From contig JAGVKY010000150.1 in NCBI GenBank assembly GCA_020050175.1, forward strand, positions 1-32,156: DNA of 32,156 nt, in the 5' to 3' direction. The position numbers and the translations under genes were made by a program. Shown here piece after piece: positions 1,946 to 31,106 of this stretch; within the stretch, counting starts at the first letter, position 1, and every line of letters starts with the position of its first letter. This stretch comes from Parachlamydiales bacterium. GTDB lineage: Bacteria > Chlamydiota > Chlamydiia > Chlamydiales > JAJFMK01. The notes under the pieces were generated by a model that was not told where the DNA came from, did no database searches, and saw only the letters and a list, made by a program, of their open reading frames with translations.

Positions 1946-1959
1946 GATATTCCTATGTG

Positions 1960-2544: not shown

Positions 2545-2548
2545 TATT

Positions 2549-2607
2549 AATGTCCCATGTGCTTCATTTGATTCATCTCATTTGTGTTAGGCATATCATG
2601 GGACATT
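2549..2607. promoter_or_regulatory. Perfect 11-bp inverted repeat (AATGTCCCATG / CATGGGACATT) with a 37-nt spacer, in the only sizeable gap of the minus-strand gene string
   Basis: Arms are 2549..2559 and 2597..2607, checked by hand. It lies between the xfp stop (2657) and the start of the DUF2231-like gene (2544). No U-tract follows it on the transcribed strand. Confidence 0.4.
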
Positions 2608-2656
2608 CCTTTCACTGTTATCCCAATTACTTGCGATTTAGCCATTCATATTTCCT

Positions 2657-5065: not shown

Positions 5066-5071
5066 AATACC

Positions 5072-8000: not shown

Positions 8001-8245
8001 TCCGAAGATATAGGATAAGTAATCTGGTCTTCAACTAATTCAGGAGTTCTTCCAGGCCATTCTGTGTAAACGATCACTTGCACATCAGATAAGTCTGGGA
8101 TCGCATCCATAGGTACTTGACGCAAAGATTGAACCGCCCATACACCTAACCCAGCAATTAAAAGGATCGTTAGTACAATATTGTTAGCACAACCGGAGAT
8201 GATTTTAGAAATGAATGAGGGCTCACTTTTCTCATTTTGGTTCAT
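5072..8245 (-). CDS. cusA: Heavy-metal efflux RND transporter, CusA-like (Cu(I)/Ag(I) type)
   Basis: 1057 aa, and it can be aligned by eye with E. coli CusA along its whole length (DA(I/L)PDLSDVQVI, FEDGTD.YWARSR, LGPDATGVGW). The three Met residues of the CusA metal site are conserved in context: LLYMPTT, ISMVETT and TEMLATGI. Confidence 0.9.
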   Translation of the reverse strand: MNQNEKSEPSFISKIISGCANNIVLTILLIAGLGVWAVQSLRQVPMDAIPDLSDVQVIVYTEWPGRTPELVEDQITYPISSEFLSAPKVKYVRGLSAFGYSFVYIIFEDGTDIYWARSRIIEYLGGIQAKLPEGVTPTLGPDATGVGWVYGYAVVDETGENDLEQLRSIQDWKIRYALRSVHGVSEIASVGGFVKQYQVNIDPNKLRSYNISIEAVSQAIKESNNDTGGEVIEIAEFEYMVRARGYIKNIQDLEEIVLTLDEKKNPIYLRDVAVVQLGPETQRAVTDLDGKGNVVAGIVVMRYGENPLRVIQDVKAKLKEIEPSLPKGVKLVTWYDRSELIEGSIKTLTDTLIEQMIVVSVIVFIFLLNVKSALIPILALPLAVLLAFIPLFYQGLSANIMSLGGIALAIGSMVDASIIIIENINKKYEKWELEGRPGTRLGMLIEAMQEVGPSIFFSLLVMTVAFMPIFSLSGREGRLFKPLAFTTTYALGWAAILSITLIPAIAALVIRGKISKEEKNPLNRWIIALYIPVVNFVVKNPKKVILVAFLFLIPVIPLWLSLGREFMPPLYEGTLLYMPTTSPGMSITEAGNFLQASDQEIMQFPEVQSVLGKMGKANTATDPAPISMVETTIVLKPKNQWRPGVTYEGLIKEMNGKLQYPGMTNIWWQPIQTRTEMLATGIRSPIGILVYGDDLAQIEKTSLDIEAAVSKIPGTLSAYAERSVGAFYMDFAVNRREASRYGLRVKNIEDIITSAIGGMNVTTTIEKRERYPVNVRYAREFREDPDTLRRVFVTTEAGDQIPLSQVSSINFVRGPDMVRSQNANLVGFVYVDPGEVPLVDYVKQAKEAVKDEVVIPAGMSLEWAGQFLYFQSAMEQLRTILPVTLLAVFILLYFNTKSFVETGIVLLAVPFSLIGALWLLYFLNYNLSIAVWVGFIALAGLDAETGVVMLLYLTLAYNRRKQEGKLNSLADLQDSVVEGAAKRIRPKLMTVSVAMLGLLPLLWSTGEGADVMKRVAAPMVGGLATSFISELFIYPAIFFIWKNREFKKLAKSSDPAQ

Positions 8246-9740
8246 CTTCTACGCCCCAATATTGCATCGCTGTAAGGATTCGACTTTCAGCGGCAATAAG
8301 AAAGTTTCCAGATGTTACTACCCGATCACCTAATTTAAGACCTGAAAGCACTTCATAATACCCATTGCTTCGCAATCCCACTTTTATTTTCTTAGGGCTC
8401 AAGCGACCATCTCCCAAATCGAGAAAAACTAACCGACCATCTCCGAGATATATCACCGCAGATTCTGGTACTTGTAAGCGCACCCCCAAAGCGATATCAA
8501 GTTCGACATTTGCATACATATCGGGTAGTAGCTCTTGAACGGGATTATCCAATTGAAAAAGCACCTGTCCTGTCCTGGCGTTTCCATTCAAATAGGGATA
8601 GATATAAGAAGCATGTGCGCTGTAAGTTTTCCCAGGTAGATAAGGCAGAGTAATAGTTGCCTTGTCACCAGGCCGGATTCGCAAGATATCGGACTGATAA
8701 ATTTCGGCTTTTAGCCAGACATTCGTAATTGGGACGATGCGGAAAACTTTCATCCCCGGTTCAACGATGTCCCCTTCAACGACATCCTTTTCAATGACAT
8801 ACCCATCCACAGCAGCTATAAAGGGCATCTTTTCAAAGGGTTCTTGCTTAGAGGTAATTTCATCGATTTGCTCATCGGATATACCCCAAAGCTTTAGACG
8901 TTCTATCGCTGATTTTATGATGGGCTTAGCACCTTCAACCTCTTCCCTTGATTTCTTAGATTCTCTTTTTAAAATTTGTAAGTATTCTTTTTGAGCCGCA
9001 TATAGGTCAGGGCTATACAAAGTGAAGAGAACTTGTCCTTTTTTTACATATTCACCTTTATAGTCGACTGTCAAATCAGTAATCCATCCCCGAACTCTGA
9101 TTGTCACATCGCTGAGTTCGGTTTCATTGTAAGTAATATTTCCAAAAGCTCGAATGACCAAATGCATCGGCCCTTCAATAACAGGTCCTGTGCGGACGCC
9201 AAACATTTGACGTCGTTGCGGTCCGACAGCAACGTCATATTTATTAGCCTCTTCTTTTTTGGCTCCTCCCCCTTCAGAGATTTTTGTTAATCCTTCCTGA
9301 CCTGTAGATAAGGTAAAGCGACCCCATCCTATACCTTGAGGCGTGCTGACAGTGACATTTAATGTCCAAATTTCCTTGTTTGGTAAATCTAGCTTGGCCT
9401 TATAGACCCCGTTGCTTTCCTCCTGAGCCTTTCCTGTTTTTCGTATCCCAGGCATCCCTGGCATGCTAGGTGCCTCATAGGCAATTTCAACTTGAGCCTT
9501 CTCTAATGCCACTCCCTTGGCATCTATTATCTTGATGATTAAAGTGTTGTCTTTTTCTCGAGGAGGATCGGGTGTTATTGAAACTTCAAAAACAAAGTTT
9601 TCTTCTTTAACGGCAGCACTTGGTGATTGTTTTTCAAGAAAGAAATTTGCGAATGTGGGAGTAAACTTAACCGCAAGCCCAGTGATGATGGCAGCAATCG
9701 ACACGAGTATAATAAGAAGAATGATGGTTTTTTTATTCAT
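8232..9740 (-). CDS. cusB: Membrane fusion protein (CusB/HlyD family) with an extra N-terminal Met-rich beta-sandwich-like domain
   Basis: The C-terminal two thirds fit the periplasmic adaptor pattern: a lipoyl/barrel region and a coiled-coil LYAAQKEYLQ. The N-terminal roughly 150 aa (FVFEVSITPDPP...APSMPGMPG...VYKAKLDL) looks like a YtkA/FixH-type metal-associated domain. I prefer the ATG at 9740 (MNKKTIILL) because it is preceded by GAAAGGA. The ORF track starts at 9779. Confidence 0.8.
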   Translation of the reverse strand: MNKKTIILLIILVSIAAIITGLAVKFTPTFANFFLEKQSPSAAVKEENFVFEVSITPDPPREKDNTLIIKIIDAKGVALEKAQVEIAYEAPSMPGMPGIRKTGKAQEESNGVYKAKLDLPNKEIWTLNVTVSTPQGIGWGRFTLSTGQEGLTKISEGGGAKKEEANKYDVAVGPQRRQMFGVRTGPVIEGPMHLVIRAFGNITYNETELSDVTIRVRGWITDLTVDYKGEYVKKGQVLFTLYSPDLYAAQKEYLQILKRESKKSREEVEGAKPIIKSAIERLKLWGISDEQIDEITSKQEPFEKMPFIAAVDGYVIEKDVVEGDIVEPGMKVFRIVPITNVWLKAEIYQSDILRIRPGDKATITLPYLPGKTYSAHASYIYPYLNGNARTGQVLFQLDNPVQELLPDMYANVELDIALGVRLQVPESAVIYLGDGRLVFLDLGDGRLSPKKIKVGLRSNGYYEVLSGLKLGDRVVTSGNFLIAAESRILTAMQYWGVEDEPK

Positions 9741-11097
9741 AACACGTCCTTTCTTCTGAAAAATGTGAGATATATCCAACAGCCTGATCTAACATAGCCA
9801 ATTGTCGATAAAATTCTGCCAAGGCTGAGTGAAGTTGCAACTCGAGTGTTCGTAAAGTTCTTTCAGACTCTATTAATTCTAAAAAGGTGTTTTTTCCAGC
9901 TTCAAAACCGGCAATTGCGGCTTCCAATTCATCTTTGGCTGTGGGTAGGATTTCTTCCTGCAAAATTTCTACATATTCTCGTGCCTGTGAAACTCTTTTT
10001 AGAGCAGTAGTGACTTCAACAAACGTTTGATCCACTAATTGGTCAAGCTTGTAAGACAAGCTTTTAATATTTGTACTAGCTTCATCAACAGCCCCTTGCC
10101 GTCTTTCAAGTTGAATGGGAAGGTTGAATCCAACGCCAAGCATGGTATACATGGATGAAAACGGCCACATGGTATTGTAAGTGCCCGACACTTCAAAATC
10201 GGGTAAATATTCCAAATGAGCCAATCGAAGTGTTGTTTCAGCTGCATCAATTTTAGCCTGTATGGCGTGTAAATCGGGTCTGTTTTGCAGGGCTACCTGT
10301 TGAAGTTGCTCCTCAGTTTCATAGACAGCAATTGGATGAAGGGCTTTTGGTGGAGGGGGTAGAGGTGTTGATGGATCGCGATGGAGTAGAGCATTGATTT
10401 TAGCAATGATGACTTCACGATCAGTCGCTAAAGAGATTTGTTCATACTCCAATTGGGCCAGCTCAACTTCGGCTTGAAGAGGGATTTGCAACGTTACCCG
10501 GCTAGTGGCATATTGGGCGTTAGCACTTTCCTTATACTCTTTTAGCAAGGCTATGTGTATATGATTAATTTCGATGGCTCGTTCAATCAAATAGTAATCA
10601 TCGAACAGATTAGAGGCGGCTGTAGCTAATTGAATTTTCACCCATTCGTAATCTTCTTCCGCACTTCCGGCTTCGGCTAAAGCGATTTTGCCTTTCAATC
10701 CTAACTTGCCTGGGAAAGGAAACTTTTGCCTAAGATCTATCTGTTGCCCATAAGCAACCTTTTTTGAATGGATAGTACCCGGAGCTAATGCATAAGAAGC
10801 CAGTGGATCATCCCAGGAGATGACTTGGGGATATTTAGCTAGCATGGTTCCCCAGGCTTGCCGAACGGATTCAAGACTGGGGTTAACAATTAGCACAGTG
10901 CCCACAAGATTGGATCGCTCTAGCGGTTCGTTTAACACGTACTCTTCAGCACTGCGTACATCCACTTTACAGTTAGAATTTCTAAAAGACCTAACCATCT
11001 GATGATATTGCTTGTTAGGCGCGGAACAACAAGAAGTCATTAAAAGAGCAAGACTCATAAAACCGGAGGTGATAAGACTTCTTGAAATGACTTCCAT
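9733..11097 (-). CDS. cusC: Outer-membrane efflux lipoprotein (TolC/NodT family, CusC-like)
   Basis: It has a lipobox LLMTSC near the N-terminus and two OEP-type repeats with coiled-coil character. Its position upstream of cusBA fits. The ATG at 11097 lies 2 nt after the atpG stop; there is an alternative TTG at 11109. Confidence 0.8.
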   Translation of the reverse strand: MEVISRSLITSGFMSLALLMTSCCSAPNKQYHQMVRSFRNSNCKVDVRSAEEYVLNEPLERSNLVGTVLIVNPSLESVRQAWGTMLAKYPQVISWDDPLASYALAPGTIHSKKVAYGQQIDLRQKFPFPGKLGLKGKIALAEAGSAEEDYEWVKIQLATAASNLFDDYYLIERAIEINHIHIALLKEYKESANAQYATSRVTLQIPLQAEVELAQLEYEQISLATDREVIIAKINALLHRDPSTPLPPPPKALHPIAVYETEEQLQQVALQNRPDLHAIQAKIDAAETTLRLAHLEYLPDFEVSGTYNTMWPFSSMYTMLGVGFNLPIQLERRQGAVDEASTNIKSLSYKLDQLVDQTFVEVTTALKRVSQAREYVEILQEEILPTAKDELEAAIAGFEAGKNTFLELIESERTLRTLELQLHSALAEFYRQLAMLDQAVGYISHFSEERTCYE

Positions 11098-11099
11098 TA

Positions 11100-12008
11100 T
11101 TACACCCAATTTTTTGATTGGTCTTTTGCCATGATCGTCTCAAACCCTGAGACAACGTCAAACAGTTCTTCATCAATGCGATTTTGTCGCTCTTGATTGT
11201 ATTTGAGATATTGCTTCTCCAACTGCTCATCAATGTGTTTTTCAGCCACTTGCATAGAAGCCAATCGACAAGCATTTTCACTGGCCAGTGATTCGGCGCA
11301 CGCTTTTATGATTGAAGTAAAGAGATGTTGGCGAATTAAAGTCGAAAATGTAACCTCTAGACCGTCAATTACTTCAGGATTCATATTGGTCGGCCATTTT
11401 TTTACCATAAAACTATTCATCCATTTTTTATCGATTGGGAGCAGGCTAAGACAAGTGGGTTCGAATTTAGCTTCAGACTTCGGTCTATTATAAAAAATAA
11501 GGAGCTGATCAACTTCTGCTAATGTTCTCTCGTGTTCTACATCGTCTAATAGTTGACTAATCAAAGTTGAAATAGTGCCAAGGGAATTAGGTACGGTAAG
11601 AGGGTTTTTGACTTTCAGGTTGGGATAATCTACCAATCGTGAAAAAACGCGCTCTCCAACAGGCCAAATAATTTTTTCTGCTGTTATTGAAGCAAGCTCC
11701 TTATGTGCATATTCAGCAATTTCATCATTAAATTGACCTACCATGCCTTGATCTGAACCAAAAATCACGATCCCAGTTCTTCGGATTACAGTTTTTTTGC
11801 TCTCAACTGCCTGTAGAATTTGAGGAGATTGAAATAAACAAGCGATTAAGCCTAATTTCACTGATTGATAGTAATGTTGGAGCGCCTTAACTGATTTTTC
11901 ATACGAATCGATGTTGATTGCAGAAAGAATTTTCATCGTTTTGATGATCGATTTAAGGGAATTCATCGTCTTGATTTTTTTTTGAAAAACGCGCATTTGG
12001 TCACTCAT
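11100..12008 (-). CDS. atpG: N-ATPase gamma subunit
   Basis: The N-terminus ...[22 protein letters not shown] and the C-terminus [17 protein letters not shown]...[12 protein letters not shown] are gamma-like. The start ATG at 12008 overlaps the atpA stop (ATGAGTGA). It is the last gene of the atpDCQRBEFAG order. Confidence 0.85.
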
Positions 12009-13542
12009 TGGCGTTACCTCCAATTTGTGACAGCGTTTTTTTAGCGATGTCGATGAGGATGCTCTTGATTTCAAGTGTCATTTTTTTGCCACCTACAATC
12101 TGCTGTTGCATGGTAGGGTCCATCTCTTCGCCAGCATGTCTAAGTCTTTTCTCTGCTTCTCCCAACTGATCGTAGGGTATTTGATCAAGTAGTCCTTCGG
12201 TAAATGCCAATAAGATAAAGATTTGAACATGGGTAGCTAAAGGATCTAGTCTGGTTTGATTAAGACACCAGCGAATGCGTTTGCCGTGTTCGAGAATTCG
12301 ACGTGTTGATTCATCCAATTGTGTGCCAAATCTGGCAAAGGCTTCCAATTCTTCAAATTGTGAGTAGGAAAGTTTAAGATTACCTGTCACCTCACGATAG
12401 GCCGCTAGTTGTGCTTTACCTCCAACGCGTGACACCGATTTGCCGACATCGACTGATGGTAAGACCCCTTTTTCAAAAAGATCTGAAGAAAGTACAATTT
12501 GTCCGTCGGTAATTGAAATGAGATTGGTCGGGATATAAGCTGAGATATCTTGAGCCTCAGTTTCAATAATTGGCAGGGCAGTTAAGGAGCCCCCACCCAG
12601 ACGTTCCTGCAAATGAGTGGCTCTTTCTAAAAGCTTGGCATGGATATAAAAGATGTCTCCTGGAAAAGCCTCTCGCCCTGGAGGTCGGCGCAATAAAAGC
12701 GAAAGTTCTCGATAGGCTCTGGCATGATTAGTCAGGTCATCATAAACGATGAGGACTTTGTGTCCGCGGTACATAAAATCTTCGGCAATGGTTGTCGCGG
12801 CATAGGGTGCTATATATCTTAATCCAGGGGGCTCATTGCCTTCGGCAACCATGACAATGGTGTATTCCATGGCGCCTCTTTCCTTGAGCTCCGCAATCAC
12901 TTTAGCTACTGAGGAGCTACGTTGCCCAATAGCACAGTAGATGCAGATGACATCCTTATTTTTTTGATTAATGATCGTATCGATGGCAATTGCTGTTTTT
13001 CCAATTTGTCGATCGCCTAGAATAAGCTCGCGTTGTCCATGGCCGATGGGAATTAAGGCATCAATAACTTTAGTTCCTGTTTGAAGGGGCAAAGTCACCG
13101 GGGCACGGTCCATTATTGCAGGAGCTTCGCGTTCAATTGGCAAACGTTCTCTGAATCTAATCTCTCCTAGACCGTCAAGAGGTGTTGCTTGTGCATTTAT
13201 CACCCGACCTAGCAAACCATCCCCAACGGGTACATCGACAACTCGGCCAGTTCGTCCTACTTCCATCCCGGCTTTAATCATTGAGCTCTCTTCAAGAAGC
13301 ACCACACCCACTTCGTTCTCATCGAGGTCATAAGCCAACCCTTTATGGCCACCTGAAAATTGGACTAATTCTTCAAAACCGACATGCGATAATCCCTTCA
13401 CTTTTGCAATGCCATTCAAAACCGACGTGACGATACCCACTTCCTTAAAGCTGATATGAGGGACTTGTGCTTTGCTAGTTTGGCTCATGTCATCCAAAAC
13501 AGAGGTAAGGACCGATCGAAGATCGCGATTTTGATTAGGCAT
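12001..13542 (-). CDS. atpA: N-ATPase alpha subunit
   Basis: It has the Walker A motif GDRQIGKT and the alpha signatures ELILGDR and [21 protein letters not shown]. The likely start is the ATG at 13542 (MPNQNRD), which overlaps the atpF stop by 8 nt. Confidence 0.92.
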
Positions 13543-14308
13543 GGATGTACTCAGAGTTTTTGTGTACCACTTCATTGGTCAGGCTTTCCAATGAAGTGAG
13601 GTAATCGGCAATATTCCAAGAGATTTTTTGCCCATTGGCCAGCAGTTCTATACCTCCTATTAATTCTGGAAGGACAATAAAATGGACGTCGAATTCCCGA
13701 CCAAACTCTTGTTGGACGGCTGCTTTGATTTTGTTGCGAATATTTTCTTTGGGTTCTGAGGCGATTTTAATTTCTAACGTTTTCGAAGCGTGAAGCCTAG
13801 CAAGCAGCTCGCCTTTTTCTTTTTGGGGAAGCATCTTCAGGTTCTGTAAAAAAACATCTACAAGTCGGTCTTGAATATCAGTATCGGCTAGATCGGCCAT
13901 GACCTTGCGCATAATAGAAAACAGTTCAGCCTGCACCTTCTGAGTGAGATCTCGAAAGACTTCTTCTTTTTCATTTTTTAGATTAGAGAGCCATTTTGTT
14001 CTTTGCTCTTCAACATCCTGCTTGGCTTCAGCTCTTAAGTTGTCTTGCAGTTGCTTGATTTCTTCGTTTAATTTTTTGATTCTTTCTGCTTTTTGCTGTT
14101 CAAACTCTTTATTCTTGTTTTGAAACAGTAAAGACTCTTCATCTGCTTCCCTTTTTTTTATTTCCGCTTCGCTGAGTTGTTTGGCAATCTCGTTTTGTCT
14201 ATCTGTGATCATTTTTAGAATTGGTTTATAGAGAAAAATTTTAAGCAGCCAGACAAGCACGAGAAAGTTCACAATCTGAGCAAATACTGTAAACCAATCG
14301 ATGAGCAT
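13535..14308 (-). CDS. atpF: N-ATPase b subunit with a delta/OSCP-like C-terminal extension
   Basis: The N-terminal TM helix plus [16 protein letters not shown] is a classic b subunit, followed by a long charged helix. The last roughly 100 aa ([30 protein letters not shown]) resemble the C-terminal motif of delta subunits. There is no separate atpH gene in the cluster. Confidence 0.8.
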
Positions 14309-14311
14309 ATT

Positions 14312-14590
14312 TTATCCAGCCACTTTAGAGATGAAGTAATTCCAGAAAGGATTAGCGAAGATAAGAATCATAGAGATGACCAAGCAATAGATGGCCATGG
14401 ATTCAATCATCGCTAAGCCAACGAAAAGAGTACGGGTCACCGGAGTGGTGACATCAGGCTGCTGGGCAATCGATTTTAAGGCAGCGTCAACGGCTCGCCC
14501 TTCAGCTAACGCAGGCCCAATTGTGCCAATGGTAATTGTAAGACCCGCAGTTATAATTGAAACAACAGCCACAAGGCTTATGTTATCCAT
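14312..14590 (-). CDS. atpE: N-ATPase c subunit (rotor ring proteolipid)
   Basis: It is a two-helix hairpin with the loop motif AQQPD and the ion-binding helix-2 motif MIESMAIY. It has an extra helix-1 Glu in GPALAEG. The ATG at 14590 lies 11 nt downstream of a strong AAGGAG, whereas the track's TTG at 14599 sits too close to that SD. Confidence 0.88.
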   Translation of the reverse strand: MDNISLVAVVSIITAGLTITIGTIGPALAEGRAVDAALKSIAQQPDVTTPVTRTLFVGLAMIESMAIYCLVISMILIFANPFWNYFISKVAG

Positions 14591-14595
14591 AATGG

Positions 14596-15285
14596 TCAAT
14601 CTCCTTTAGTTTTAACTTCTTCAAATGTTCTTGTCGCTGCTGCAATATAGACAGAAGCCAGAACAGTAAAAATATAGGCTTGCACTAAACTCGTAATCAA
14701 ATCCAATACATGTAAGAACACAGGGAAAAAGAGGGGGGAAATGCTGATAATAATGCCGATAGTCAAGGTTCCGCTCATCGTGTTCCCAAAAAGACGTACC
14801 GCTAAGGCTAGTGTGCGGGTAAAATCGGCGAGAATGTTAAATGGTAGAAAAATGAAAAAGGGGTGTAGATAATTTTTAAGAAAGCCGATCACTCCTTTCT
14901 CTTTAATGGCATACAATGGCACGGCAATAAAGACGCAGATAGCCAATGCCGCTGTAGTTGAAAGAGAACCAGTGGGAGGTATATATCCAGGGATAATAGT
15001 TAGAATTCCACAAAATCCTATAAAAACAAATATCGTGCCGATAAAACCGATATATTTCTCTGGTGTTTGCAGGCCTATTTCTTGCAAGTGTTTGTAAACG
15101 AAACTTACAATAATTTCTAAAAGAGTTTCGATATTAGTGCTGATTTTTCCTTTTACTATTCGTCGATTAAAAAACCATGATCCACTAACAAGAATAAGCA
15201 TCACTACCCACGTGACGAGAATGGTAGCATTTAATTTTAAAACACCATATTTCCAAAGAATGATCGAATCTGGCGTTATGTCCAT
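14596..15285 (-). CDS. atpB: N-ATPase a subunit
   Basis: 229 aa polytopic protein with the essential stator Arg in context (LALAVRLFGNTMSG). Confidence 0.88.
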   Translation of the reverse strand: MDITPDSIILWKYGVLKLNATILVTWVVMLILVSGSWFFNRRIVKGKISTNIETLLEIIVSFVYKHLQEIGLQTPEKYIGFIGTIFVFIGFCGILTIIPGYIPPTGSLSTTAALAICVFIAVPLYAIKEKGVIGFLKNYLHPFFIFLPFNILADFTRTLALAVRLFGNTMSGTLTIGIIISISPLFFPVFLHVLDLITSLVQAYIFTVLASVYIAAATRTFEEVKTKGD

Positions 15286-15289
15286 GAGC

Positions 15290-15565
15290 CTATCCTGAAG
15301 TTTTCATGGTAAGAACAATTTTTCTCGATAACATAAACCCGAGCAATATAAGCGCATATCTCGCTACATGCTCATTGGCAATCAGGTAGAAAACAGATGC
15401 CGTTACTACGATTCTAACGATAAAACTAGACCACCACCAAAGTGCAAAATGATTGGAAGAAAATCGCCTTAAAATAGTCCACCACAAGCCCACATAAAAA
15501 ATGGTTCCCACCCCAAGACCTACAATAAAAGAAAGAAACAACATCACTATTTCGGCCAAGTCCAT
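15290..15565 (-). CDS. atpR: N-ATPase accessory membrane protein AtpR
   Basis: About 91 aa from the ATG at 15565 (MDLAEIV...), which lies 1 nt after the atpQ stop. It has three hydrophobic helices with a membrane-embedded Arg (FIVRIVV). Its position between atpQ and atpB is specific to N-ATPase operons. Confidence 0.7.
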   Translation of the reverse strand: MDLAEIVMLFLSFIVGLGVGTIFYVGLWWTILRRFSSNHFALWWWSSFIVRIVVTASVFYLIANEHVARYALILLGFMLSRKIVLTMKTSG

Positions 15566-15566
15566 T

Positions 15567-15867
15567 TCAATCGTCCTCTTTCTTAAACATTTCTCTTGCA
15601 AGCAAAAATAAAGCTGACACAATCCCCACGCCGATACCCACAAGCAGCAAGGCAAGAGTCCATGCATGCGAGCCTGTAAAATAATGCTCTATCAACCCGC
15701 CTATAAAAATCCCTATCAATGCGGGTATGATAACTGCCCAGCCAACTAATCCAAACAGGCCAAATCCCCACCAAGCATTCACTTCTTTCTTGCGCCTTGC
15801 TTTGACCTTCCTGGCTTCTTTCTTGATGGCCTGGTTGCGAAAATCCTTTTTTTCTGGAGGTTGTTTT

Positions 15868-15875
<8 letters not shown>
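15567..15875 (-). CDS. atpQ: N-ATPase accessory membrane protein AtpQ (AtpZ/AtpI-like, 'ATPase gene 1' family)
   Basis: It has a basic N-terminus followed by WWGFGLFGLVGWAVIIPALIGIFIGGLIE...HAWTLALLLVGIGVG, which is the typical pattern of this family. It overlaps the atpC stop by 8 nt. Confidence 0.75.
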
Positions 15876-17726
<1,851 letters not shown>

Positions 17727-17733
17727 TTAAAAT

Positions 17734-17745
17734 TCTGTATACAGA
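17734..17745. promoter_or_regulatory. Perfect 12-bp palindrome TCTGTATACAGA about 70 bp upstream of atpD
   Basis: I checked by hand that it is self-complementary. It lies in the only non-coding stretch upstream of the 17-gene minus-strand string, so it is a candidate operator. Confidence 0.3.
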
Positions 17746-17877
17746 TCTTTTCATGCCTTATCAGATTTTATTTGATTTGGCGTCAATGATAAATTCTTCA
17801 AAAACAACCCATTGACTTGAATAGGTAGATTTTGAAGATTTAGGCAGGTACTTCTCTGTGTTAAAGGGAAAGAGGTT

Positions 17878-17916
17878 ATGAGGATATTAGTGGCGGGAGC
17901 GACAGGAGCGATTTAG
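17878..17916 (+). pseudogene. 12-codon remnant of a Rossmann-fold NAD(P)-binding (SDR/epimerase/NmrA-type) gene
   Basis: AAAGAGG is followed 5 nt later by ATG, then MRILVAGATGAI and TAG. This is the canonical N-terminal GxxGxxG dinucleotide-binding start, and no related sequence follows the stop. Confidence 0.35.
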
Positions 17917-18016
17917 CCAGCCAAAAACGGGTGCTATTAGTCAGCTAAAATGTACACATACCCAATGATTGTATACCTTACAAAGAAATGAGGATCCTTT
18001 GAAGGAACGGGATTTA

Positions 18017-18409
18017 TTAGGAGGCAGATTCTTCAAGAACCAAATGTCTTTGCCGTTTCACGGTGACATCTGATTCACGGTCGATTTTTTCATCAATAGC
18101 GTCCAAAATCCATTGCTTCTTGGACGTGAGATTTCTTTTTTCTTTAATTATTTCAAGATGATTTTTTAGCCTGTCAGATAGGTCAGGATCTAAAATAATA
18201 CTTAGAGTTTTCTCTTTTTCAACCGACTTAAGCTTCTGTTCTATTTTCAGTTTTTCTTAAATAGCTTCCTTCACCCACTCCTCATCAGAAATTGTCGGAT
18301 CAATGGCGCGTCGGATCTTTTGGACATGATTCTTGATTCTGGAAGAAAAAATGGAACTTACATAGACAGTATATTTCCGGTCGTCGCTATTATCTGAGGA
18401 GCCTTCCAT
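18017..18409 (-). pseudogene. Tandem ribbon-helix-helix (TraY/CopG-like) DNA-binding protein interrupted by an in-frame TAA
   Basis: I translated it by hand. It reads MEGSSDNSDDRKYTVYVSSIFSSRIKNHVQKIRRAIDPTISDEEWVKEAI, then TAA (18257..18259), then EKLKIEQKLKSVEKEKTLSIILDPDLSDRLKNHLEIIKEKRNLTSKKQWILDAIDEKIDRESDVTVKRQRHLVLEESAS and stop (18017..18019). Both halves show the RHH beta-strand/helix A/helix B pattern. The second half has no ATG/GTG/TTG start. Confidence 0.6.
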
Positions 18410-18572
18410 GTAGTCCAAGTTGATATGAAGAAATTAATCGAGGCCAATATTCTCAGCTCAGATTACTAGAAAATGGATAACTTTTCTATTCGCAATCTTT
18501 TTATGAACTCATAAACTTCGGCAGACCTTGTGTAAATAAAAAATTGCTTGCGTGGGATGAATATTTCTTGTA

Positions 18573-18608
18573 TTGACAAGATTTTAGCAAAAGGAATAGA
18601 GTCCTTTT
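18573..18608 (+). promoter_or_regulatory. Candidate sigma70-type promoter for the tra operon, overlapped by a 7-bp inverted repeat
   Basis: TTGACA (18573..18578), an 18-nt spacer, then TAGAGT (18597..18602). The inverted repeat AAAAGGA/TCCTTTT (18589..18595 / 18602..18608) straddles the -10. AGGAG at 18613..18617 precedes the traA-like ATG. Confidence 0.3.
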
Positions 18609-18629
18609 GCGTAGGAGAAATATTTTAAT

Positions 18630-18947
18630 ATGAACCAACGCACTTTTTACAGCCTGCTGTTCTTAGCTGGGCTAGTTTTCATCGTCTCTCCCGAATTTTT
18701 GTCAGCCGTTCAACAAACCAACGATAAGTTTTCTGGGAAAGAAATCACCGATCACGCCAATAGCATCTCTTCTTTCTTATTCGGGCCAGTCGCTCGAGTG
18801 GCTGGAGTTATTGGTGGGGGCTACGGACTCGTTACTTCCATCATTACCTCCTCTATCCGACCATTGATTACTTTTGGTGGAATTGGATTAGGGGTAAACC
18901 TCGTGCCAAAGTTTATTGATACCGTTTTTACCATGCTTCTCCCTTAA
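18630..18947 (+). CDS. traA: Putative F-type propilin (TraA-like)
   Basis: 105 aa. It has a leader with an AxA-like site (FLSA|VQQ) and then two Gly-rich hydrophobic segments. Its position immediately upstream of traL is canonical. I could not verify any direct sequence motif. Confidence 0.5.
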   Translation: MNQRTFYSLLFLAGLVFIVSPEFLSAVQQTNDKFSGKEITDHANSISSFLFGPVARVAGVIGGGYGLVTSIITSSIRPLITFGGIGLGVNLVPKFIDTVFTMLLP

Positions 18948-18953
18948 GCGAAG

Positions 18954-19265
18954 TTGGTCAAAATGGAAAGCAATCAACTCCATCCCATCATTAAGACGTT
19001 AGACAACGCTCCAAGAATTCTCTTCTGGAGCGTTGATGAATTTATCGTGATGTTTCTGCCGCTCTTTATTGGGATTTTTTTAGGAAGTCTCTTAGTGATG
19101 GCTCTGGGAATTGTGGCAAAACCCCTCTATTCAAAGCTCAAAAAAAGATACCCCAAATCAATTTTGAGACACCTTGCTTATTGGACGATGCCGAGGAAAG
19201 TTTTTTCCCATGCAGGAATCCTTAAAAGGGTACCCCCATCCCACATAAGGAAGTATCTCCTTTGA
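18954..19265 (+). CDS. traL: Type IV conjugative transfer protein TraL
   Basis: It shows the TraL pattern: LDNAPRILFWSVDEF, one TM helix, and the C-terminal YWTMP...VPPSHIRKYL (compare F TraL YWYMP...VPDSCFRQWI). The ATG at 18963 is an alternative to the TTG at 18954. Confidence 0.85.
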   Translation: MVKMESNQLHPIIKTLDNAPRILFWSVDEFIVMFLPLFIGIFLGSLLVMALGIVAKPLYSKLKKRYPKSILRHLAYWTMPRKVFSHAGILKRVPPSHIRKYLL

Positions 19266-20511: not shown

Positions 20512-21728
20512 GTAACCAAAATCGGATCACTCACGGCAAGCAAATCAAAAGATTCTCACTCATAGCAGCGACAGCCACCCTCCTCTTCGGAGTCATTGGC
20601 TATTACCTCATTGACGACTCGAAAGAATCAAAATCTCCTCAAATGGAGAGCGATCTCCCTCTTGATCATCTCAATCCTCAAGATATGTGGATGTCTCGGA
20701 TGGAAAATGATTCCAAGCTTTTCCAGCAAAAAATGAATTATCTGGAAGACCTTATTCTGGAGACCAAAAAACGAGAATTCGAAACCGAACAAGAGAACAA
20801 CTCTCTACGCCAAGAACTTTCTAAGCTAAAAAGAGAGCTAAAGGAACTTTCAGACCGACCAGTTCAAGACCCTCCTCCAATGAGTTTCATGAACGACCCA
20901 TTTAAACCCTATGAAGAAAGATCTCCACAAGGGCCCGTCCGTTCCCCCCTTATTGAACTTGTCATAGAAGGCTCCCCTACAAAGACCAAAAATGTCGATG
21001 AAGTTATTCCAGCCGGCACTTCAGTTCGAGCCGTCCTGCTTTCTAGCGTGGATGTCCCTTGCGGAGCCTTCGGGAGTTCCGATCCACAACCGGTTAAGCT
21101 AAGAATTTTGGACAATGGCCATCTCCCCAAAAAGGTCCAAGCAAGATTGAAAGGGGGCATCGTGATTGGGAGTGTCTATGGAGACCTTTCCAATGAAAGG
21201 GTCTATATGCGTCTGGAACGATTGACCCAAGTCAGAAGCGACGGGGACTTTATCGAAACTGACGTCACTGGCTACGTCACTGGAGAGGATGGCAAGTACG
21301 GAGTTCGAGGATGTGTTGTCGATAAAAGTTCTAAGATGGTCACCAATGCTGCTCTTAGCGGTTTCTTTAGCGGGGTGGGACAATACCTCCAAGCTGCTGC
21401 ACTTGCCAACACTGTGGTCCCCTATGGAGCTGCGGCAGTTCCAGGAGGCCTCTCCCCTGCCTATAGCTTTTACCAAAATAGCGTGGACCTAGCTCAACAA
21501 GCTGGCGCGCAAGGGGCGGCTTCAGCCTTTGACATGCTGACGGATTATTTCATCAAAAGAGCTGAACAGATCCGACCTGTCATAGAAGTTACAGCCGGGA
21601 GAATGGTTGACATTACTTTTACTCACAACGCTGAACTAGGCGACCTCCACACCAAAAACAAGGTAAAGGAAATCCGGGAAAGTTGTCGGAGTCCTCAAAT
21701 CATTAACCCAAACCGTTCAAATGCTTAA
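20508..21728 (+). CDS. traB: Type IV conjugative transfer protein TraB (VirB10-like)
   Basis: It has a TM anchor, a coiled coil, a Pro-rich linker and a C-terminal barrel with IPAGTSVRAVLLSSVD. It has an ATGA overlap with traK. Confidence 0.85.
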   Translation: MSNQNRITHGKQIKRFSLIAATATLLFGVIGYYLIDDSKESKSPQMESDLPLDHLNPQDMWMSRMENDSKLFQQKMNYLEDLILETKKREFETEQENNSLRQELSKLKRELKELSDRPVQDPPPMSFMNDPFKPYEERSPQGPVRSPLIELVIEGSPTKTKNVDEVIPAGTSVRAVLLSSVDVPCGAFGSSDPQPVKLRILDNGHLPKKVQARLKGGIVIGSVYGDLSNERVYMRLERLTQVRSDGDFIETDVTGYVTGEDGKYGVRGCVVDKSSKMVTNAALSGFFSGVGQYLQAAALANTVVPYGAAAVPGGLSPAYSFYQNSVDLAQQAGAQGAASAFDMLTDYFIKRAEQIRPVIEVTAGRMVDITFTHNAELGDLHTKNKVKEIRESCRSPQIINPNRSNA

Positions 21729-27407: not shown

Positions 27408-28390
27408 GATTGGGTTTCATCCTTCTCTTAGTTTTTTGTCCTCTCTCCGCTGGAATGTTCAATCCTGTCACTGATGTTTGTTGGGAATGCCTTTTCCCTA
27501 TGACAGTCAGCGGAACAAATGTAACGCCAGGAAAAGAGGATTTCGCCAAATACCACTCTCGTTTCTGCATCTGCCCGGGGACCCCTCCAAAAATGGGCAT
27601 TCCTCTGACATTTTGGGAGCCCTTACGCCTTGTAGATGTCACCCGTCATGCTTATAAACTTGTCGCCCTTGGAGGCATCTCCATTGGAAATGAGAGTATT
27701 AAAAACAGAGGATCTGTTGGACTAGTTGATGAGAACCCCTCTACTTCCAGCTTTTACCATGTCCATTGGTACGAATACCCAATTTTGAGCCTCCTCGGGC
27801 TATTCACCGACTTTTCCTGTGTCACAAAAGGTAAAATGGACACTCTCTACCTGAGTGAATTCGACCCTTTATGGAGAGATGATCAACTCAATGCCATTCT
27901 AAATCCAGAAGCAGGCCTTTTTTGTTCGCCTCTAGCACAAACAGCCTGTATTGCCGATTGTTTAACAAGTTCCACTTCATTCCCAAATGATGCTCTTTTT
28001 TGGTGCGCGGGATGTGAGGGTTCTCTCTACCCTTTCACTGGAACAGTGTCGCACCATGTTGGCGGCATTCAAGCGAGCAGCCTCTTAGTCCAACGAACAA
28101 TCGCTAAGCTTCACCGCATGTCTCTTTTAAAGGGGTACGAAAAGGGAGACTTTTGTGAACCAAGACTGATGCCTATCATCAAAAAGAGCCTTTACAAGAC
28201 TCAGCTCGTTCACCCTATTCCTCAAACTTCGGGTTCCTGCCATCCCCTAGGTAAAAGCGATCTGCTTTGGGGTTCAGGAAAATCCTTTCCTAAATCGGGA
28301 GAGGACTTTGTCTATCTACTTTGGGTAAAAAAACAATGTTGTCTCGATGCCGTCAAACCAGCCACCAAAGCCTTTGGAGCATCTTCATGA
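27404..28390 (+). CDS. traU: Type IV conjugative transfer protein TraU
   Basis: It has a signal peptide followed by NPVTDVCWECLFPMTVSG and multiple conserved Cys residues, which is the TraU signature. Confidence 0.9.
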   Translation: MRLGFILLLVFCPLSAGMFNPVTDVCWECLFPMTVSGTNVTPGKEDFAKYHSRFCICPGTPPKMGIPLTFWEPLRLVDVTRHAYKLVALGGISIGNESIKNRGSVGLVDENPSTSSFYHVHWYEYPILSLLGLFTDFSCVTKGKMDTLYLSEFDPLWRDDQLNAILNPEAGLFCSPLAQTACIADCLTSSTSFPNDALFWCAGCEGSLYPFTGTVSHHVGGIQASSLLVQRTIAKLHRMSLLKGYEKGDFCEPRLMPIIKKSLYKTQLVHPIPQTSGSCHPLGKSDLLWGSGKSFPKSGEDFVYLLWVKKQCCLDAVKPATKAFGASS

Positions 28391-30024
28391 TGGCACTCTT
28401 TCTTCCTGTTATCGGTTTTACCGGAGAGACTGACCGCCTGAAAAAAGAGGGCGAAGCCTTTGGAAAAGAAAGTGTTTCTCAAGGTTTGAAATACGCCAAA
28501 GAGATCAACCCCGAGGATCTACTCCCTCTAGAAGATCGTGGCAAAAAATTTGATCCCAAGATCGCAAGAGAGCAGGTCAGCAAACAAGAGGTTCGGGATA
28601 GCGAGGCCTTTTCTTTCATCAGGGATAAAAAAGTTTTAGAGAATATCTCTAAAAACGTAGAAGAGGTTCTCTTTTCTGATTCAGACAAAGCCATTGAAAA
28701 ATCAAACAAGGGCCTCCTCGAATTTACAGAGGAGAGAGAGGAAACGCTTGAAACATGCTTTGAAGAAGATAGCCCTTACCGATTCACCGCCGATAAGGAA
28801 CTTCGTGTCCAAGTCAAATCCTCCCCTAAGAAGGTCGAAGTCATTAAAGTTTGCGATGGCCATGAATCGAAAAAAAGCCATTTCTGGAAATCTCTAGCCG
28901 AAGAAGACGCGGAGAAACAAAAAGCCCGCTTTAAACAAGATTCTACGATCAAAAGCTATGAGGTTAAGATCAGAAATGGCGGAGTCCTTTCCGATTATGA
29001 AGTCGTTTCGAAATGGACCCATAAAGATAATACAAAAGGATGCAATGCCTTTACGGAAAAGCGCCTTACAACTTCCCCAAAGAAGGAGGAAGAAATCGAT
29101 GAATGGATCTCCCTCTCTCAAAATCCTGGTATTGAGGAGCTCGACTCTACCCTCTTAAATGTAGAGTGCATAGAGCTTGAAGCTTCCAAACAAATTAACG
29201 GAAAGGAAGTTCATCGGCAGTGTTGGAAAAAAAGGTTCCATTACCTAGCAAGACACCCACATAAAAAGGGATGCGAGTTTTTAAAATACAAAAACTGCCT
29301 CCAAACAAAGAAAACCTGTGTCCAGCCCTCTGAATGGGGCTGTTCGCTTTGGGAACTTACTTACCGTTGCTCCTCCAAGGTCATCAAGAAAACCACCTCC
29401 CTCAACCAGGAGGACCTTTATGGCCAAGAGGGGTGGGATACTTCTTACGCTCCCAACTCTTCGCTCCCTGAGGTAACCACTAAACTAAAAGTCTTTGAAG
29501 AGATGAAAAATGAACTGGAAAAATACAACATTTCCGACGCAACAAAGGTTCAGATCTTCTCCGGAAAAAAAGGCAAGTGCAGCAAAAGCACAGCTAACGA
29601 TCTTCTCTATGACTGCTGTTTTTCCTTCCATGGCCTCGCAAAAGACATCCAATTAAGCAAATGCTCCGCTGACGAACTCGCTCTTTCAGAAATGAGAGAG
29701 AAAGGGCTTTGCCACTACATCGGCTCTTACGACGAGAAATTTCTAGAACTTTGGAAAAGCCGAGAGGAGCATGTTTTCTGCTGCTTCCCATCTAAGCTTT
29801 CTAGAGTTTTTCAAGAAAAATCGAGAGAACAGCTAAAAATCTCCTGGGGAGAACCTGAAACCCCCAATTGCCGCGGCCTCTCTCAAGAGGAAATTGGAAG
29901 GCTAAACTTTTCTACCATGGATCTTTCTGAGGCCTTTGATCCACCCTCTCAACATGACTTTTCTGAGAAAATTCAACACATCGAAGAGAGATTAAAAGCT
30001 CGTTTAGCTGAGGAGCACTCATGA
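28387..30024 (+). CDS. traN: Mating-pair stabilisation protein TraN
   Basis: It is a large, Cys-rich secreted protein; the C-terminal half carries many Cys residues, including CSKSTANDLLYDCCF and VFCCFPSKLSRV. I prefer the ATG at 28387 (ATGA overlap with traU), which is followed by a hydrophobic signal segment. Confidence 0.85.
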   Translation: MMALFLPVIGFTGETDRLKKEGEAFGKESVSQGLKYAKEINPEDLLPLEDRGKKFDPKIAREQVSKQEVRDSEAFSFIRDKKVLENISKNVEEVLFSDSDKAIEKSNKGLLEFTEEREETLETCFEEDSPYRFTADKELRVQVKSSPKKVEVIKVCDGHESKKSHFWKSLAEEDAEKQKARFKQDSTIKSYEVKIRNGGVLSDYEVVSKWTHKDNTKGCNAFTEKRLTTSPKKEEEIDEWISLSQNPGIEELDSTLLNVECIELEASKQINGKEVHRQCWKKRFHYLARHPHKKGCEFLKYKNCLQTKKTCVQPSEWGCSLWELTYRCSSKVIKKTTSLNQEDLYGQEGWDTSYAPNSSLPEVTTKLKVFEEMKNELEKYNISDATKVQIFSGKKGKCSKSTANDLLYDCCFSFHGLAKDIQLSKCSADELALSEMREKGLCHYIGSYDEKFLELWKSREEHVFCCFPSKLSRVFQEKSREQLKISWGEPETPNCRGLSQEEIGRLNFSTMDLSEAFDPPSQHDFSEKIQHIEERLKARLAEEHS

Positions 30025-31106
30025 CTCCGACCAAATTAATCTCATTCGAGAGCTTCGAAATGTGTAACAGTTGCACATTTGAGTTTACGCAAAAGTCCCA
30101 CAGGTTGTGGGACAAATTAGGGCCAACCCCTACCGGGACAGAATCTTATAGAGACATTGCATTAGTGCAGCAGCTTGCTGCACTAATGCAGCGGAGCTAC
30201 AGGGGACAAGATTCCACAATAGTACAGGAGAAATTAGTGCCCCCGGCAGTGGCACAATTAAGAGAATTTATCTGGGTCTTTAGCCCCATTTCTTTTCGAA
30301 AATCCGAACAGGATGAAAAAGTCGCACCAGCAGTGCGACAAATTGAAGCCACAATCATCTATTTTGTAAAAGCCCTTGCTCTGTCTATTTTATTCCTTTC
30401 TTGCTCTCTAGATGCTGGCTGGCACGACAGAAAGGCTGAAGGGTGGGCTTGGTACGAGGACAAGCCTCAAAAAGAAACAGTAAAAGAATCGAGGGAAACA
30501 CGAGAAACTTCAGAAACAGCCCTCGAAAGACTCTCTACAATTAAGAAAGATCTTGAGGAGAAACTTGCCATAGCCGTTTTAGAGCCCTCAGAAGAAAACA
30601 TCGAAGCCTACATGGAGGAACAAAGAAAGTGGTTTGACCAATCTTCGAAATTCTCTAAAACTTGGTCCAAGCTTCTTCTATTACGCCCCGACCTTGACCC
30701 GACAGCTACTCAGTTCCCTGTTTCACAGTACGGATCACAGCTTCAAAAAAGATTAAGTGCAGAAGACACAAAAAATCTGATTCTCAATCTCGCCAAAGAC
30801 AATGGCCTTTTCTTTTTCTACGAAGGGAACAGCAAGGTCTCCCAAGCTTTTGCCAAAGTCATCCGAGAATTTTCTAAACGCTATTCCTGGGAAATTGTAC
30901 CTATCTCTGTTGATGGAACCCTTCTGGAGGGATTTCCCGATTCAAAACTTGATAACGGCATTTCTAACCAATTTGGAATCACGGTTTTTCCAGCTTTGTT
31001 TGTGATTAACCCATCATCTAAGACAGCTACACCCATCTCTTACGGTCTTGTTTCTCTGGACCAAATTGAGAGCAATTTCACCCTGCAATTTAAGGAGAGA
31101 GAATGA
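30021..31106 (+). CDS. traF: TraF (thioredoxin-fold, lacking CXXC) with an anomalous roughly 115-aa N-terminal extension
   Basis: From about residue 115 it matches TraF: a signal-like ALALSILFLSCSLDA, then EGWAWYED, and a C-terminal GLFFFYEGNSKVSQAF...VPISVDG...FPALFVINP. There is no canonical start codon just upstream of the signal-like segment. The upstream open frame runs through the palindrome cluster. Confidence 0.75.
   Translation: MTPTKLISFESFEMCNSCTFEFTQKSHRLWDKLGPTPTGTESYRDIALVQQLAALMQRSYRGQDSTIVQEKLVPPAVAQLREFIWVFSPISFRKSEQDEKVAPAVRQIEATIIYFVKALALSILFLSCSLDAGWHDRKAEGWAWYEDKPQKETVKESRETRETSETALERLSTIKKDLEEKLAIAVLEPSEENIEAYMEEQRKWFDQSSKFSKTWSKLLLLRPDLDPTATQFPVSQYGSQLQKRLSAEDTKNLILNLAKDNGLFFFYEGNSKVSQAFAKVIREFSKRYSWEIVPISVDGTLLEGFPDSKLDNGISNQFGITVFPALFVINPSSKTATPISYGLVSLDQIESNFTLQFKERE
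30058..30339. repeat. Cluster of five related palindromic stem-loops (GTGC/GCAC-type cores) plus three GGGACA-RR-AT direct repeats
   Basis: All were checked by hand.
- H0: 30058..30080, 10-bp stem with one G:T, loop CAG.
- H1: 30095..30113, 8-bp stem, loop GGT.
- H2: 30158..30190, perfect 15-bp stem, loop GCT.
- H3: 30232..30259, 4+5 bp stem with one bulge, 9-nt loop.
- H4: 30321..30339, 7-bp stem, loop CAGCA.
- Direct repeats are at 30109..30118, 30135..30144 and 30203..30212. Confidence 0.8.

Follow-up and report, generated by a model that had tools for sequence, protein, structure and literature searches.

In-frame fusions of palindromic DNA to bacterial genes are known from the Rickettsia palindromic elements (RPEs) and from miniature transposable elements with inverted repeats (MITEs) (reviewed in PMC10969869; Ogata et al. 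2000, 2002, cited in PMC4316617). In RNA genes, template switching during replication keeps hairpins perfect (PMC8794818), and in the Rickettsiales amplified genetic element (RAGE) of R. felis pLbaR a gene of the DUF1016 family is found between traU and traW (PMC4316617). This study concerns a cluster of five palindromes at the traN-traF junction of an F-type transfer (tra) operon in a 32,156-bp contig of a Parachlamydiales bacterium (GenBank assembly GCA_020050175.1, contig JAGVKY010000150.1), referred to here in its full length as the window. In plasmid F, a separate small gene, trbE, lies between traN and traF. In the window, the palindromes are found within the traF open reading frame (ORF) itself, in a contig-specific in-frame insertion of approximately 310–340 bp that separates the ancestral traF start from the hydrophobic signal-peptide core of TraF. 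The same kind of palindrome is found in and beside genes of the DUF1016/YhcG family.

Direct reading and a repeat scan place the five palindromes (H1–H5, none assigned to a strand) inside 290 bp of the junction. H1 (30058–30080; listed span 30057..30081) has 11-nt arms with one mismatch (AAATGTGTAAC.A.GTTGCACATTT), and H2 (30095–30113; listed span 30090..30118) has an 8-bp stem and a 3-nt loop (AAAAGTCCCACA.GGT.TGTGGGACAAATT). H3 (30158–30190) is a perfect palindrome of 33 nt comprising a 15-bp stem and a 3-nt loop. H4 (30232–30259, listed to 30260) is imperfect, with a GTGCC/GGCAC core and AATT flanks, and H5 (30321–30339; listed span 30316..30344) has a 7-bp stem and a 5-nt loop (AAAAGTCGCAC.CAGCA.GTGCGACAAATT). 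Two unpaired half-sites, GGGACAGAAT (30135..30144) and GGGACAAGAT (30203..30212), are present on the plus strand. Three positions, 30109, 30135, and 30203, carry GGGACA-RR-AT, and neither strand of the window has a further occurrence. A first-pass annotation of the window had reported these five palindromes, the perfect stem of H3, and the three direct repeats, all of which were recovered here. H2 and H5 are paralogues: they share the pattern AAAAGTC[C/G]CAC..GTG[G/C]GACAAATT, at offsets of 70 and 296 from the traF ATG, and differ by a compensatory change from C:G in H2 to G:C in H5. Copies within the cluster are 60–74% alike and spaced by 35–85 nt; near-identical, regularly spaced direct repeats of a tandem, iteron or CRISPR-like array are absent, and Tandem Repeats Finder detects none. 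On the minus strand, TTTT(T) follows both H2 and H5, giving the pattern of an intrinsic terminator for antisense transcription; the A-run behind these T-tracts derives from the GAA AAA (E-K) codons that precede the units.

The concentration of hairpins is pronounced: 4 of the 31 perfect hairpins in the whole window (stem of at least 7 bp, loop of at most 12 nt) fall within the 280 bp of the cluster. Folding the region as RNA and as single-stranded DNA, which the first-pass annotation had proposed, revealed structure beyond that of shuffled sequences. The minimum free energy (MFE) of the 370-nt segment is −117.4 kcal/mol as RNA (z = −4.9) and −63.9 kcal/mol as DNA (z = −5.4), and in neither case was any of 100 dinucleotide shuffles equally stable. 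Synonymous shuffles, in which the peptide of the open frame was fixed and codons were redrawn using the window's own usage, gave four stems of at least 7 bp or a 15-bp stem in none of 2000 trials (RNA MFE z = −4.0). Given the hairpin census, the folding scores and the synonymous shuffles, the structure of the cluster is real and non-random, and is not a by-product of the encoded peptide.

Comparison with related tra loci identifies the block as an insertion. traN (28321..30024, plus strand; Pfam F_T4SS_TraN, E 2.7e-57) ends in a TGA codon (30022–30024) that overlaps the start of the 361-codon traF ORF (30021..31106, plus strand), and the 4-nt ATGA overlaps with both traN and traH are kept. By sequence reading, a Shine-Dalgarno motif, GAGGAG (30010..30015, plus strand), lies 5 nt upstream of the ATG at 30021. 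The distance from the traN stop to the AEGW motif of TraF is 407 nt in the window versus 53–136 nt in 13 related chlamydial loci, and the same junction contains four hairpins of at least 7 bp in the window versus none in the 13 relatives. The contig-specific block spans 30025..30365 on the plus strand; the insert most likely covers positions 30042–30353 (312 bp, 104 codons), both boundaries being approximate. All 94 TraF homologues lack the extension, having lengths of 217–276 aa that cover the C-terminal 58–70% of the 361-aa query; a conserved N-terminal domain shared by TraF orthologues, which the first-pass annotation had named as the finding that would count against an insertion or a cis-acting element, is absent from them. 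In the related locus L002, the only related junction of this layout read at sequence level, the same ATGA overlap of traN and traF is preceded by a purine-rich stretch and followed directly by MK and the signal peptide, which indicates that the ancestral traF start has been retained in the window. The earlier suggestion of an inserted structured element that displaced the traF start is thus supported in substance as regards the insertion, given its absence from 13 junctions and 94 homologues and its DNA-level repeat units, and fails for the displacement, given the retained ATGA start and Shine-Dalgarno motif.

The TraF protein downstream of the block is intact. The signal-peptide core, VKALALSILFLSCSLDA (30366..30416, plus strand), was placed by alignment with 12 homologues and falls in a predicted helix at residues 102–143 (predicted local distance difference test, pLDDT, 83–95). 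It is followed by mature TraF, a thioredoxin-like pilus-assembly protein (30417..31103, plus strand), whose integrity is supported by Pfam, TIGR02739 and pLDDT values above 90. The Pfam TraF model (PF13728) matches residues 141–353 over profile positions 1–223 of 224 (E 1.6e-62), and TIGR02739 aligns residues 118–356 to profile positions 4–247 with 226 bits against a cut-off of 204.6, leaving the first ~115 residues outside the family. This agrees with the first-pass observation that recognisable TraF begins only about 115 codons into a frame that is open from the ATG overlapping the traN stop. Residues Val116-Lys117 are encoded by GTA AAA, where relatives have ATG AAA (M-K followed by the signal peptide). 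The claim that TraF lacks a canonical start of its own is correct at this position and overlooks an in-frame GTG at codon 105 (30333..30335, plus strand), a possible alternative start located within the 3' arm of H5; its nearest AGGA lies 19 nt upstream, which makes for a poor ribosome-binding site.

No stop codon interrupts the traF frame across 30021–30365; the five remaining frames have 8, 6, 7, 3, and 5. About six would be expected, and the probability of finding none by chance is roughly 0.003. The in-frame codon-usage score (0.087) exceeds those of all off-frame windows of real genes and falls at the 3rd percentile among true coding windows. The simplest reading, at the level of sequence, is that traF would be translated from the ATG at 30021 through the insert, with selection for TraF keeping the frame open. 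The Joint Genome Institute (JGI) gene call for traF (P0001, 313 aa) begins at a GTG at 30165, inside H3, and not at the ATGA-coupled ATG at 30021.

The relatives of the palindromes were found in another gene family. A scan of metagenome contigs with the H2/H5 consensus returned 117 loci (the window's own contig not among them), in 115 of which the two S positions are complementary, and a large share of the matches fall in genes that read EKVAQAVRQI... or KVPQLVGQIPWGHN in frame. Pfam assigns to these genes a DUF1016_N domain together with the YhcG_C PD-(D/E)XK nuclease domain. Motif copies in the same genes that had not been selected by the scan are likewise perfect palindromes whose arms differ in pairs, for example ATTGTCCCGCCA.C.TGGCGGGACAAT (encoding IVPPLAGQL) and GTGTCACCA.C.TGGTGACAC (encoding VSPLVTQ). 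As a safeguard against selection bias, 80 DUF1016 loci were fetched from viral contigs by peptide patterns of the C-terminal nuclease domain. Among these loci (L121–L200), 40 of 57 distinct DUF1016 genes contain a perfect palindrome of at least 8 bp at codons ~97–163, where the N-terminal domain forms the loop that immediately precedes the PW.HN motif. One to three copies are present per gene, often as two tandem copies, with stems of up to 15 bp that usually form the longest hairpin of the gene. The ends of H3, ATTAGTGCA and TGCACTAAT, are those of the DUF1016 palindromes in L187 and L189; a search of the viral contigs for the exact H3 sequence gave no match.

The stems in DUF1016 genes exceed the requirements of the encoded protein and covary. 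Over the 16 codons that precede the tryptophan of PW.HN, the best stem has a mean length of 8.5 bp versus 4.4 bp in synonymous shuffles, the excess being individually significant (P <= 0.01) in 10 of 21 genes. Alignment of 31 palindromes shows pairing in 91% of cells and changes on both sides in 11 of 12 pairs (85 cells vs. 24 in shuffles), figures to be read with the caveat that the inner 8 bp had served to pick the sites. Compensatory changes alter the encoded amino acids in pairs. Mismatches at stem ends comprise 47 A:C and 18 G:T, and a sense-strand G-U preference was not seen, the test for such a bias being uninformative or opposite in direction. A literature search found no published description of palindromes in DUF1016/YhcG genes; the single paper among those searched to contain both terms has 'palindrome' only within the title of a reference.

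A covariance model (R1) was built from the 31 DUF1016-gene palindromes only and used to scan the window with filters off. Its five best sites are the five hairpins of the junction: H3 (E 8e-10), H2 (1.3e-9), H5 (1.9e-5), H4 (0.009), and H1 (0.019). The next match in the window has an E value of 0.04, and all others exceed 1. Other long hairpins in the window, such as those at 13568–13598 and 19004–19035, receive no score, so R1 is not simply a hairpin detector. The background of R1 is low: the 145-kb plasmid pPNK and the related tra loci (54 kb) each contain a single match with E < 0.01. By this ranking, the model places all five hairpins of the window in the DUF1016-type palindrome family, whose general shape (stems of 7–15 bp, loops of 1–5 nt, A/T-rich flanks) they share, H4 being imperfect. 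No other copy of the cluster exists in the window. A 14-nt match in the TraB-like gene (21390–21403, in a TrbI-like domain; E 0.04) receives no support from R1 and was taken as chance. Dispersal through Chlamydiae in the manner of repetitive extragenic palindromes (REPs) was considered and rejected, given the single R1 match with E < 0.01 in pPNK. That match (L214 12110–12134) is an 11-bp perfect palindrome, AAATTTGCAAC.C.GTTGCAAATTT, located ~15 nt past the stop codon of a 4.4-kb AAA ATPase gene. An origin of the GGGACAAATT-type repeats, which we take to resemble TnsB-binding sites, as the end of a transposon of the Tn7 or CRISPR-associated (CAST) type was also dropped, the window being without tns genes.

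The palindromes of the window can be compared with the frame in which palindrome units are read within DUF1016 genes, here called the native frame. H3, H4, and H5 are in their native frame in the traF ORF, where they encode IALVQQLAALM, EKLVPPAVAQL, and EKVAPAVRQI, respectively. For H1 and H2 the native frame is +2; in it, H2 would encode YAKVPQVVGQI (QKSHRLWDKL in the ORF), and H1 now contains a TAA codon. Being read in two frames, the palindromes are units at the DNA level and not a protein repeat. The array looks like a once-continuous coding array that may have suffered one frameshift between 30119 and 30159, and a formerly coding array would have been two-thirds free of stops on arrival.

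Family members also occur outside the genes. Extragenic copies adjoin the DUF1016 genes of L152 (2 nt after the ORF), L155 (+32), and L157 (−27, +1, and +245), and 6 of the 13 hairpins of at least 9 bp in 153 kb of DUF1016 flanks belong to the family, all within 245 nt of the gene. These copies match the intragenic copy of their own locus, a pattern of concerted evolution; L157 has no copy inside the gene. In E. coli K-12, yhcG (which was outside the R1 training set) contains three tandem intragenic copies with a 39-nt period (L211 6129–6235), and a fourth, best-scoring copy is located 14 nt past its stop codon (L211 6969–6997); further E. coli sites are L212 3455–3485 and L213 1935–1961 and 2770–2797. 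By an estimate from evenly spaced rows of the match list, about one in six of 5,426 complete E. coli genomes lacks yhcG. In one such strain, AR_0081, a lone palindrome separates gltD and nanQ. Over a core of 27 nt it is identical to the first palindrome inside yhcG of strain FWSEC0010, and 9 nt past the palindrome homology to K-12 picks up again. Since the lone core is that of an intragenic yhcG palindrome, the boundary between presence and absence of yhcG coincides with the palindrome. Arrays without the nuclease gene are found as well. A 56-aa mini-ORF between hsdM and hsdS of a metagenome contig (L032 646–816, minus strand) consists of three tandem palindromes with a 30-nt period and has ATGA overlaps at both ends, and L092 contains two palindromes 29 nt apart in differing frames.

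It is conceivable, if rather doubtful, that the palindromes of DUF1016/YhcG genes form a widespread self-maintaining class that provides the cis sites of a mobile or recombining cassette. Copies are found inside the gene, at its ends and at empty sites, and they change in concert by paired substitutions. On such a reading, the array in traF, the mini-ORF between hsdM and hsdS, and the single gltD-nanQ palindrome of E. coli would be footprints or landing pads of a system akin to that of REPs and their transposases, with a PD-(D/E)XK nuclease in place of the transposase and with its sites embedded in coding sequence. Two further settings of the palindrome were noted. In L008, L018, L027, L054, L091, and about 20 more lake-metagenome loci, a conserved non-coding segment begins at the palindrome AAAGTCCCACAGCCTGTGGGACAAA and goes on with ttgcggttgctgcattatacc. 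The sequence on the other side of the palindrome varies, and in L018, L054, and L112 it is a DUF1016 N-terminal fragment ending at the palindrome; on the opposite strand, the order TATAAT, hairpin, TTTT, ATG is observed. A single palindrome of the DUF1016 type (TGTGCAACAG/CTGTTGCACA, 3783–3811) is also present at the end of the Parachlamydia-like tra contig L003, 3 nt past the traF stop; L201, a close relative, is without it.

The best reading of the traN-traF block, which we regard as reasonably though not strongly probable, is that DUF1016-type palindromes, as a relic or a cassette, have been fused to traF in frame, with selection keeping the frame open. The insertion, the membership of the palindrome family, the pattern of frames, and the open frame are established; we infer that the block stems from a DUF1016 cassette, that translation begins at 30021, and that the product is cleaved. 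A DUF1016-type cassette or a palindromic mini-ORF would have entered the junction as DNA, bringing what are now five diverged copies and two half-copies of the family. It would then have been reduced and fused to traF, leaving GTA where relatives have the ATG start. A cassette origin is favored because DUF1016 genes are cargo of tra operons in intracellular bacteria, and because the coupled mini-ORF of L032 offers a parallel. The predicted product is a TraF precursor in which about 115 additional cytoplasmic residues precede the hydrophobic core, and from which signal peptidase would free mature TraF by cleavage between LDA and G, the extension being lost with the signal peptide. Since TraF could now be made only by translating through the insert from the ATG at 30021, the block would remain free of stops. 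If the hairpins have an effect today, it would probably come from strong folding of the mRNA, by which translation of traF is slowed or tuned or the message upstream is stabilized, although any regulatory role is speculative. They are perhaps kept perfect by template switching (PMC8794818) or by a DUF1016 nuclease encoded elsewhere in the genome.

Several observations weigh against this fusion of a DUF1016-type cassette. No DUF1016 gene is present in the window according to Pfam, and a hidden Markov model (HMM) of 57 DUF1016 proteins found no match in its six-frame translation; with no such gene within 32 kb, the cluster is an orphan array, like that of L032 and the empty site of E. coli. A decayed DUF1016 gene was rejected as a candidate, the HMM search being empty and tblastn similarity being confined to the palindrome units plus a few neighboring residues, a similarity that is itself biased by the choice of loci. 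The spacing of 35–85 nt is wider than the 29–57 nt (~10–19 codons) of tandem copies in DUF1016 genes, L032, and L092. The insert has no clear boundaries, and no target-site duplication was detected, the best alignment of its left and right boundaries being no better than shuffles. The in-frame GTG at 30333 could be the traF start instead of the ATG, and the reading demands translation and export of a precursor with a long cytoplasmic extension. Finally, the block is present in one contig only, and there is no close relative (best TraF identity 56–59%) by which to date the insert or gauge selection on it.

An alternative of lower standing, which we consider improbable, is that the cluster is a selected RNA element of the tra polycistron, whose role would be that of a stability barrier, of a site for processing, or of a translational brake governing the ratio of TraN to TraF, with its coding capacity incidental. 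Folding well beyond dinucleotide and synonymous shuffles (z = −4.9 and −4.0) is in keeping with such an element, as are the similar three-hairpin mini-ORF of the hsdM-hsdS junction and the lone family palindromes found right after stop codons in E. coli, L003, and pPNK, where they resemble terminators or stabilizers. An RNA stability or processing element, as first proposed, is possible; however, it is not conserved among relatives, and its absence from 13 of 13 related tra operons makes it dispensable for the function of an F-type operon. The plus strand of the cluster has no intrinsic terminator and no sense-strand T-tract, terminator-like sites being confined to the minus strand, and a scan of the cluster against Rfam 15 returned only two chance-level matches (E 0.5 and 8). 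The stems are perfect Watson-Crick pairs, and the family, with 47 A:C and 18 G:T mismatches at stem ends, showed no preference for G-U pairs in the sense strand.

It is very unlikely that the first ~115 residues constitute a new cytoplasmic N-terminal domain of TraF, with the palindromes arising as a by-product of repeated helices. The frame is open, the codon-usage score is weakly positive, AlphaFold predicts three helices in the extension (residues 16–32, 42–60, and 75–86), and H3–H5 are in the same frame as in DUF1016 proteins, all of which would suit a domain. However, pLDDT is only 30–66 over residues 1–100, compared with 83–95 for the signal helix and more than 90 for mature TraF, and Pfam and NCBIfam give no match to the extension. 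A word-indexed search of 5.8 billion proteins found no homologue, and an exhaustive HMMER search of 1.84 billion representatives found only the contig's own gene call and, weakly, P0096 (E 2.7e-5). Furthermore, H1 and H2 are out of their native frame, the hairpins go far beyond the needs of the peptide, and all relatives lack the region. The genuine novel domain entertained in the first-pass annotation is therefore not borne out. P0096 is a 389-aa protein with 57-aa repeats containing LWDKM and FVGQDA (WDK/VGQD motifs), and resembles translated tandem DNA repeats bearing GTGGGACAA half-sites.

Still less credible is a traF pseudogene in a decaying tra operon whose frame is open by luck, or a block that is an artefact of metagenome assembly. 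Palindromes can arise in amplified libraries, the block is found in one contig only, and the JGI call starts elsewhere (GTG 30165), but freedom from stops by luck has the low probability given above, mature TraF and the neighboring tra genes are intact with their 4-nt overlaps, and five distinct palindromes that fit an independently derived family model are unlike the product of a chimeric read. Least probable of all is a cis-acting DNA site for conjugation, whether a hairpin cluster of the oriT or single-strand initiation (ssi) type or a centromere- or iteron-like array as suggested at first, since, despite five related dyad-symmetric sites and two half-sites in 290 bp and a single-stranded DNA fold with z = −5.4, the family occurs without a conjugation role in chromosomal and prophage DUF1016 genes (E. 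coli yhcG among them), the hsdM-hsdS operon and the E. coli gltD-nanQ junction, is missing from the junctions of 13 related tra operons, lies here within a frame-constrained ORF, and has arms that vary among copies and so offer no single operator sequence.

The F-type tra operon that contains the junction is on the plus strand and extends from 18630 to the end of the window, successive genes overlapping by 4 nt. Its order is an ORF without assigned family, traL, traE, traK, a TraB/TrbI-like gene, a second ORF without assigned family, a thioredoxin gene, traC, an S26 peptidase gene, a third such ORF, trbC, traU, traN, traF, and traH. The nearest relatives of its TraF are all from Chlamydiota: Parachlamydia, Waddlia, Parachlamydiales metagenome-assembled genomes, and plasmid pPNK of Protochlamydia naegleriophila. 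The minus strand of positions 263–17666 encodes an N-type ATPase operon with AtpR, a resistance-nodulation-division (RND) efflux system (AcrB/HlyD/OEP), a phosphoketolase, and a phosphorylase fragment; whether as cargo or as chromosomal surroundings, these are unusual beside an F-type transfer region of chlamydiae. Between the two, a divergent region of ~960 bp (17667–18630) precedes the first ORF of the tra operon (18630; traL from 18954). It contains hairpins at 18467–18488, 18500–18515, and 18587–18610, a weak R1 match at 17730–17749 (E 0.04), and, by eye, apparent small minus-strand ORFs, and is a candidate promoter, regulator or oriT region.

The case shows that a gene for an essential periplasmic pilus-assembly protein can carry ~100 extra hairpin-forming codons between its start and its signal-peptide core, with the frame open, and the locus represents a natural test of how much is tolerated by a Sec signal peptide and by translational coupling. 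Its study also exposes a conserved, covarying, and apparently undescribed palindrome in a nuclease gene family that is very common yet has no known function, including yhcG of E. coli K-12, in which the feature is directly testable. Should the palindromes be recombination or recognition sites, they would give a first functional handle on DUF1016 proteins and explain orphan hairpin arrays in operon junctions. Taken alone, the traF case is a curiosity of uncertain function; the underlying palindrome family might be a new class of element, a suggestion we offer tentatively and with more doubt than confidence.

The cluster most closely resembles, in sequence, the palindromes of DUF1016/YhcG genes (PF17761 + PF06250). 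Both have A/T-rich flanks (ATT/AAA ... AAT/ATT), a GT(G/C)..(G/C)AC core, stems of 8–15 bp and loops of 1–5 nt, and in both tandem copies differ by compensatory changes. The window differs in having five copies instead of one to three, a wider spacing, two copies off their native frame, and traF as the host gene. Perfect stems with paired differences between copies are also a property shared by DUF1016 palindromes and template-switch hairpins, and template-switch mutation could maintain such stems without any function. Compared with trbE of plasmid F, the block is likewise extra coding sequence at the traN-traF junction; in contrast to trbE, it is fused to traF and palindromic, and no similarity between the two was found.

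REPs and bacterial interspersed mosaic elements (BIMEs), with their REP-associated tyrosine transposases (RAYTs; REPINs), parallel the DUF1016 family in that short palindromes are clustered beside a nuclease-type gene and copies within a locus evolve in concert. However, REPs are extragenic and have a Y1 transposase of the HUH type as partner, whereas the DUF1016 family is mostly intragenic, has a PD-(D/E)XK partner, and shows no genome-wide dispersal in the DNA examined. The window cluster in particular lies inside the traF ORF, unlike the extragenic REP/BIME clusters. Functionally, the closest described phenomenon is the in-frame palindromic insertion of the RPE/MITE kind. As with RPEs, palindromic DNA lies in frame within a gene of an intracellular bacterium, the frame is open, and the domain of the host protein is intact. 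The window array is nevertheless not of RPE type, the comparison being one of structure and setting. RPEs are single elements of ~150 bp with a conserved peptide and tens of dispersed copies per genome, whereas the window has five short hairpins, no second copy in 32 kb, and one R1 match in the related 145-kb plasmid. Nor does the array form a unit of ~100–150 bp with terminal inverted repeats of the RPE/MITE kind, and it has no long-range dyad and no flanking direct repeat; in place of one long element, traF has acquired an array of short, related palindromes.

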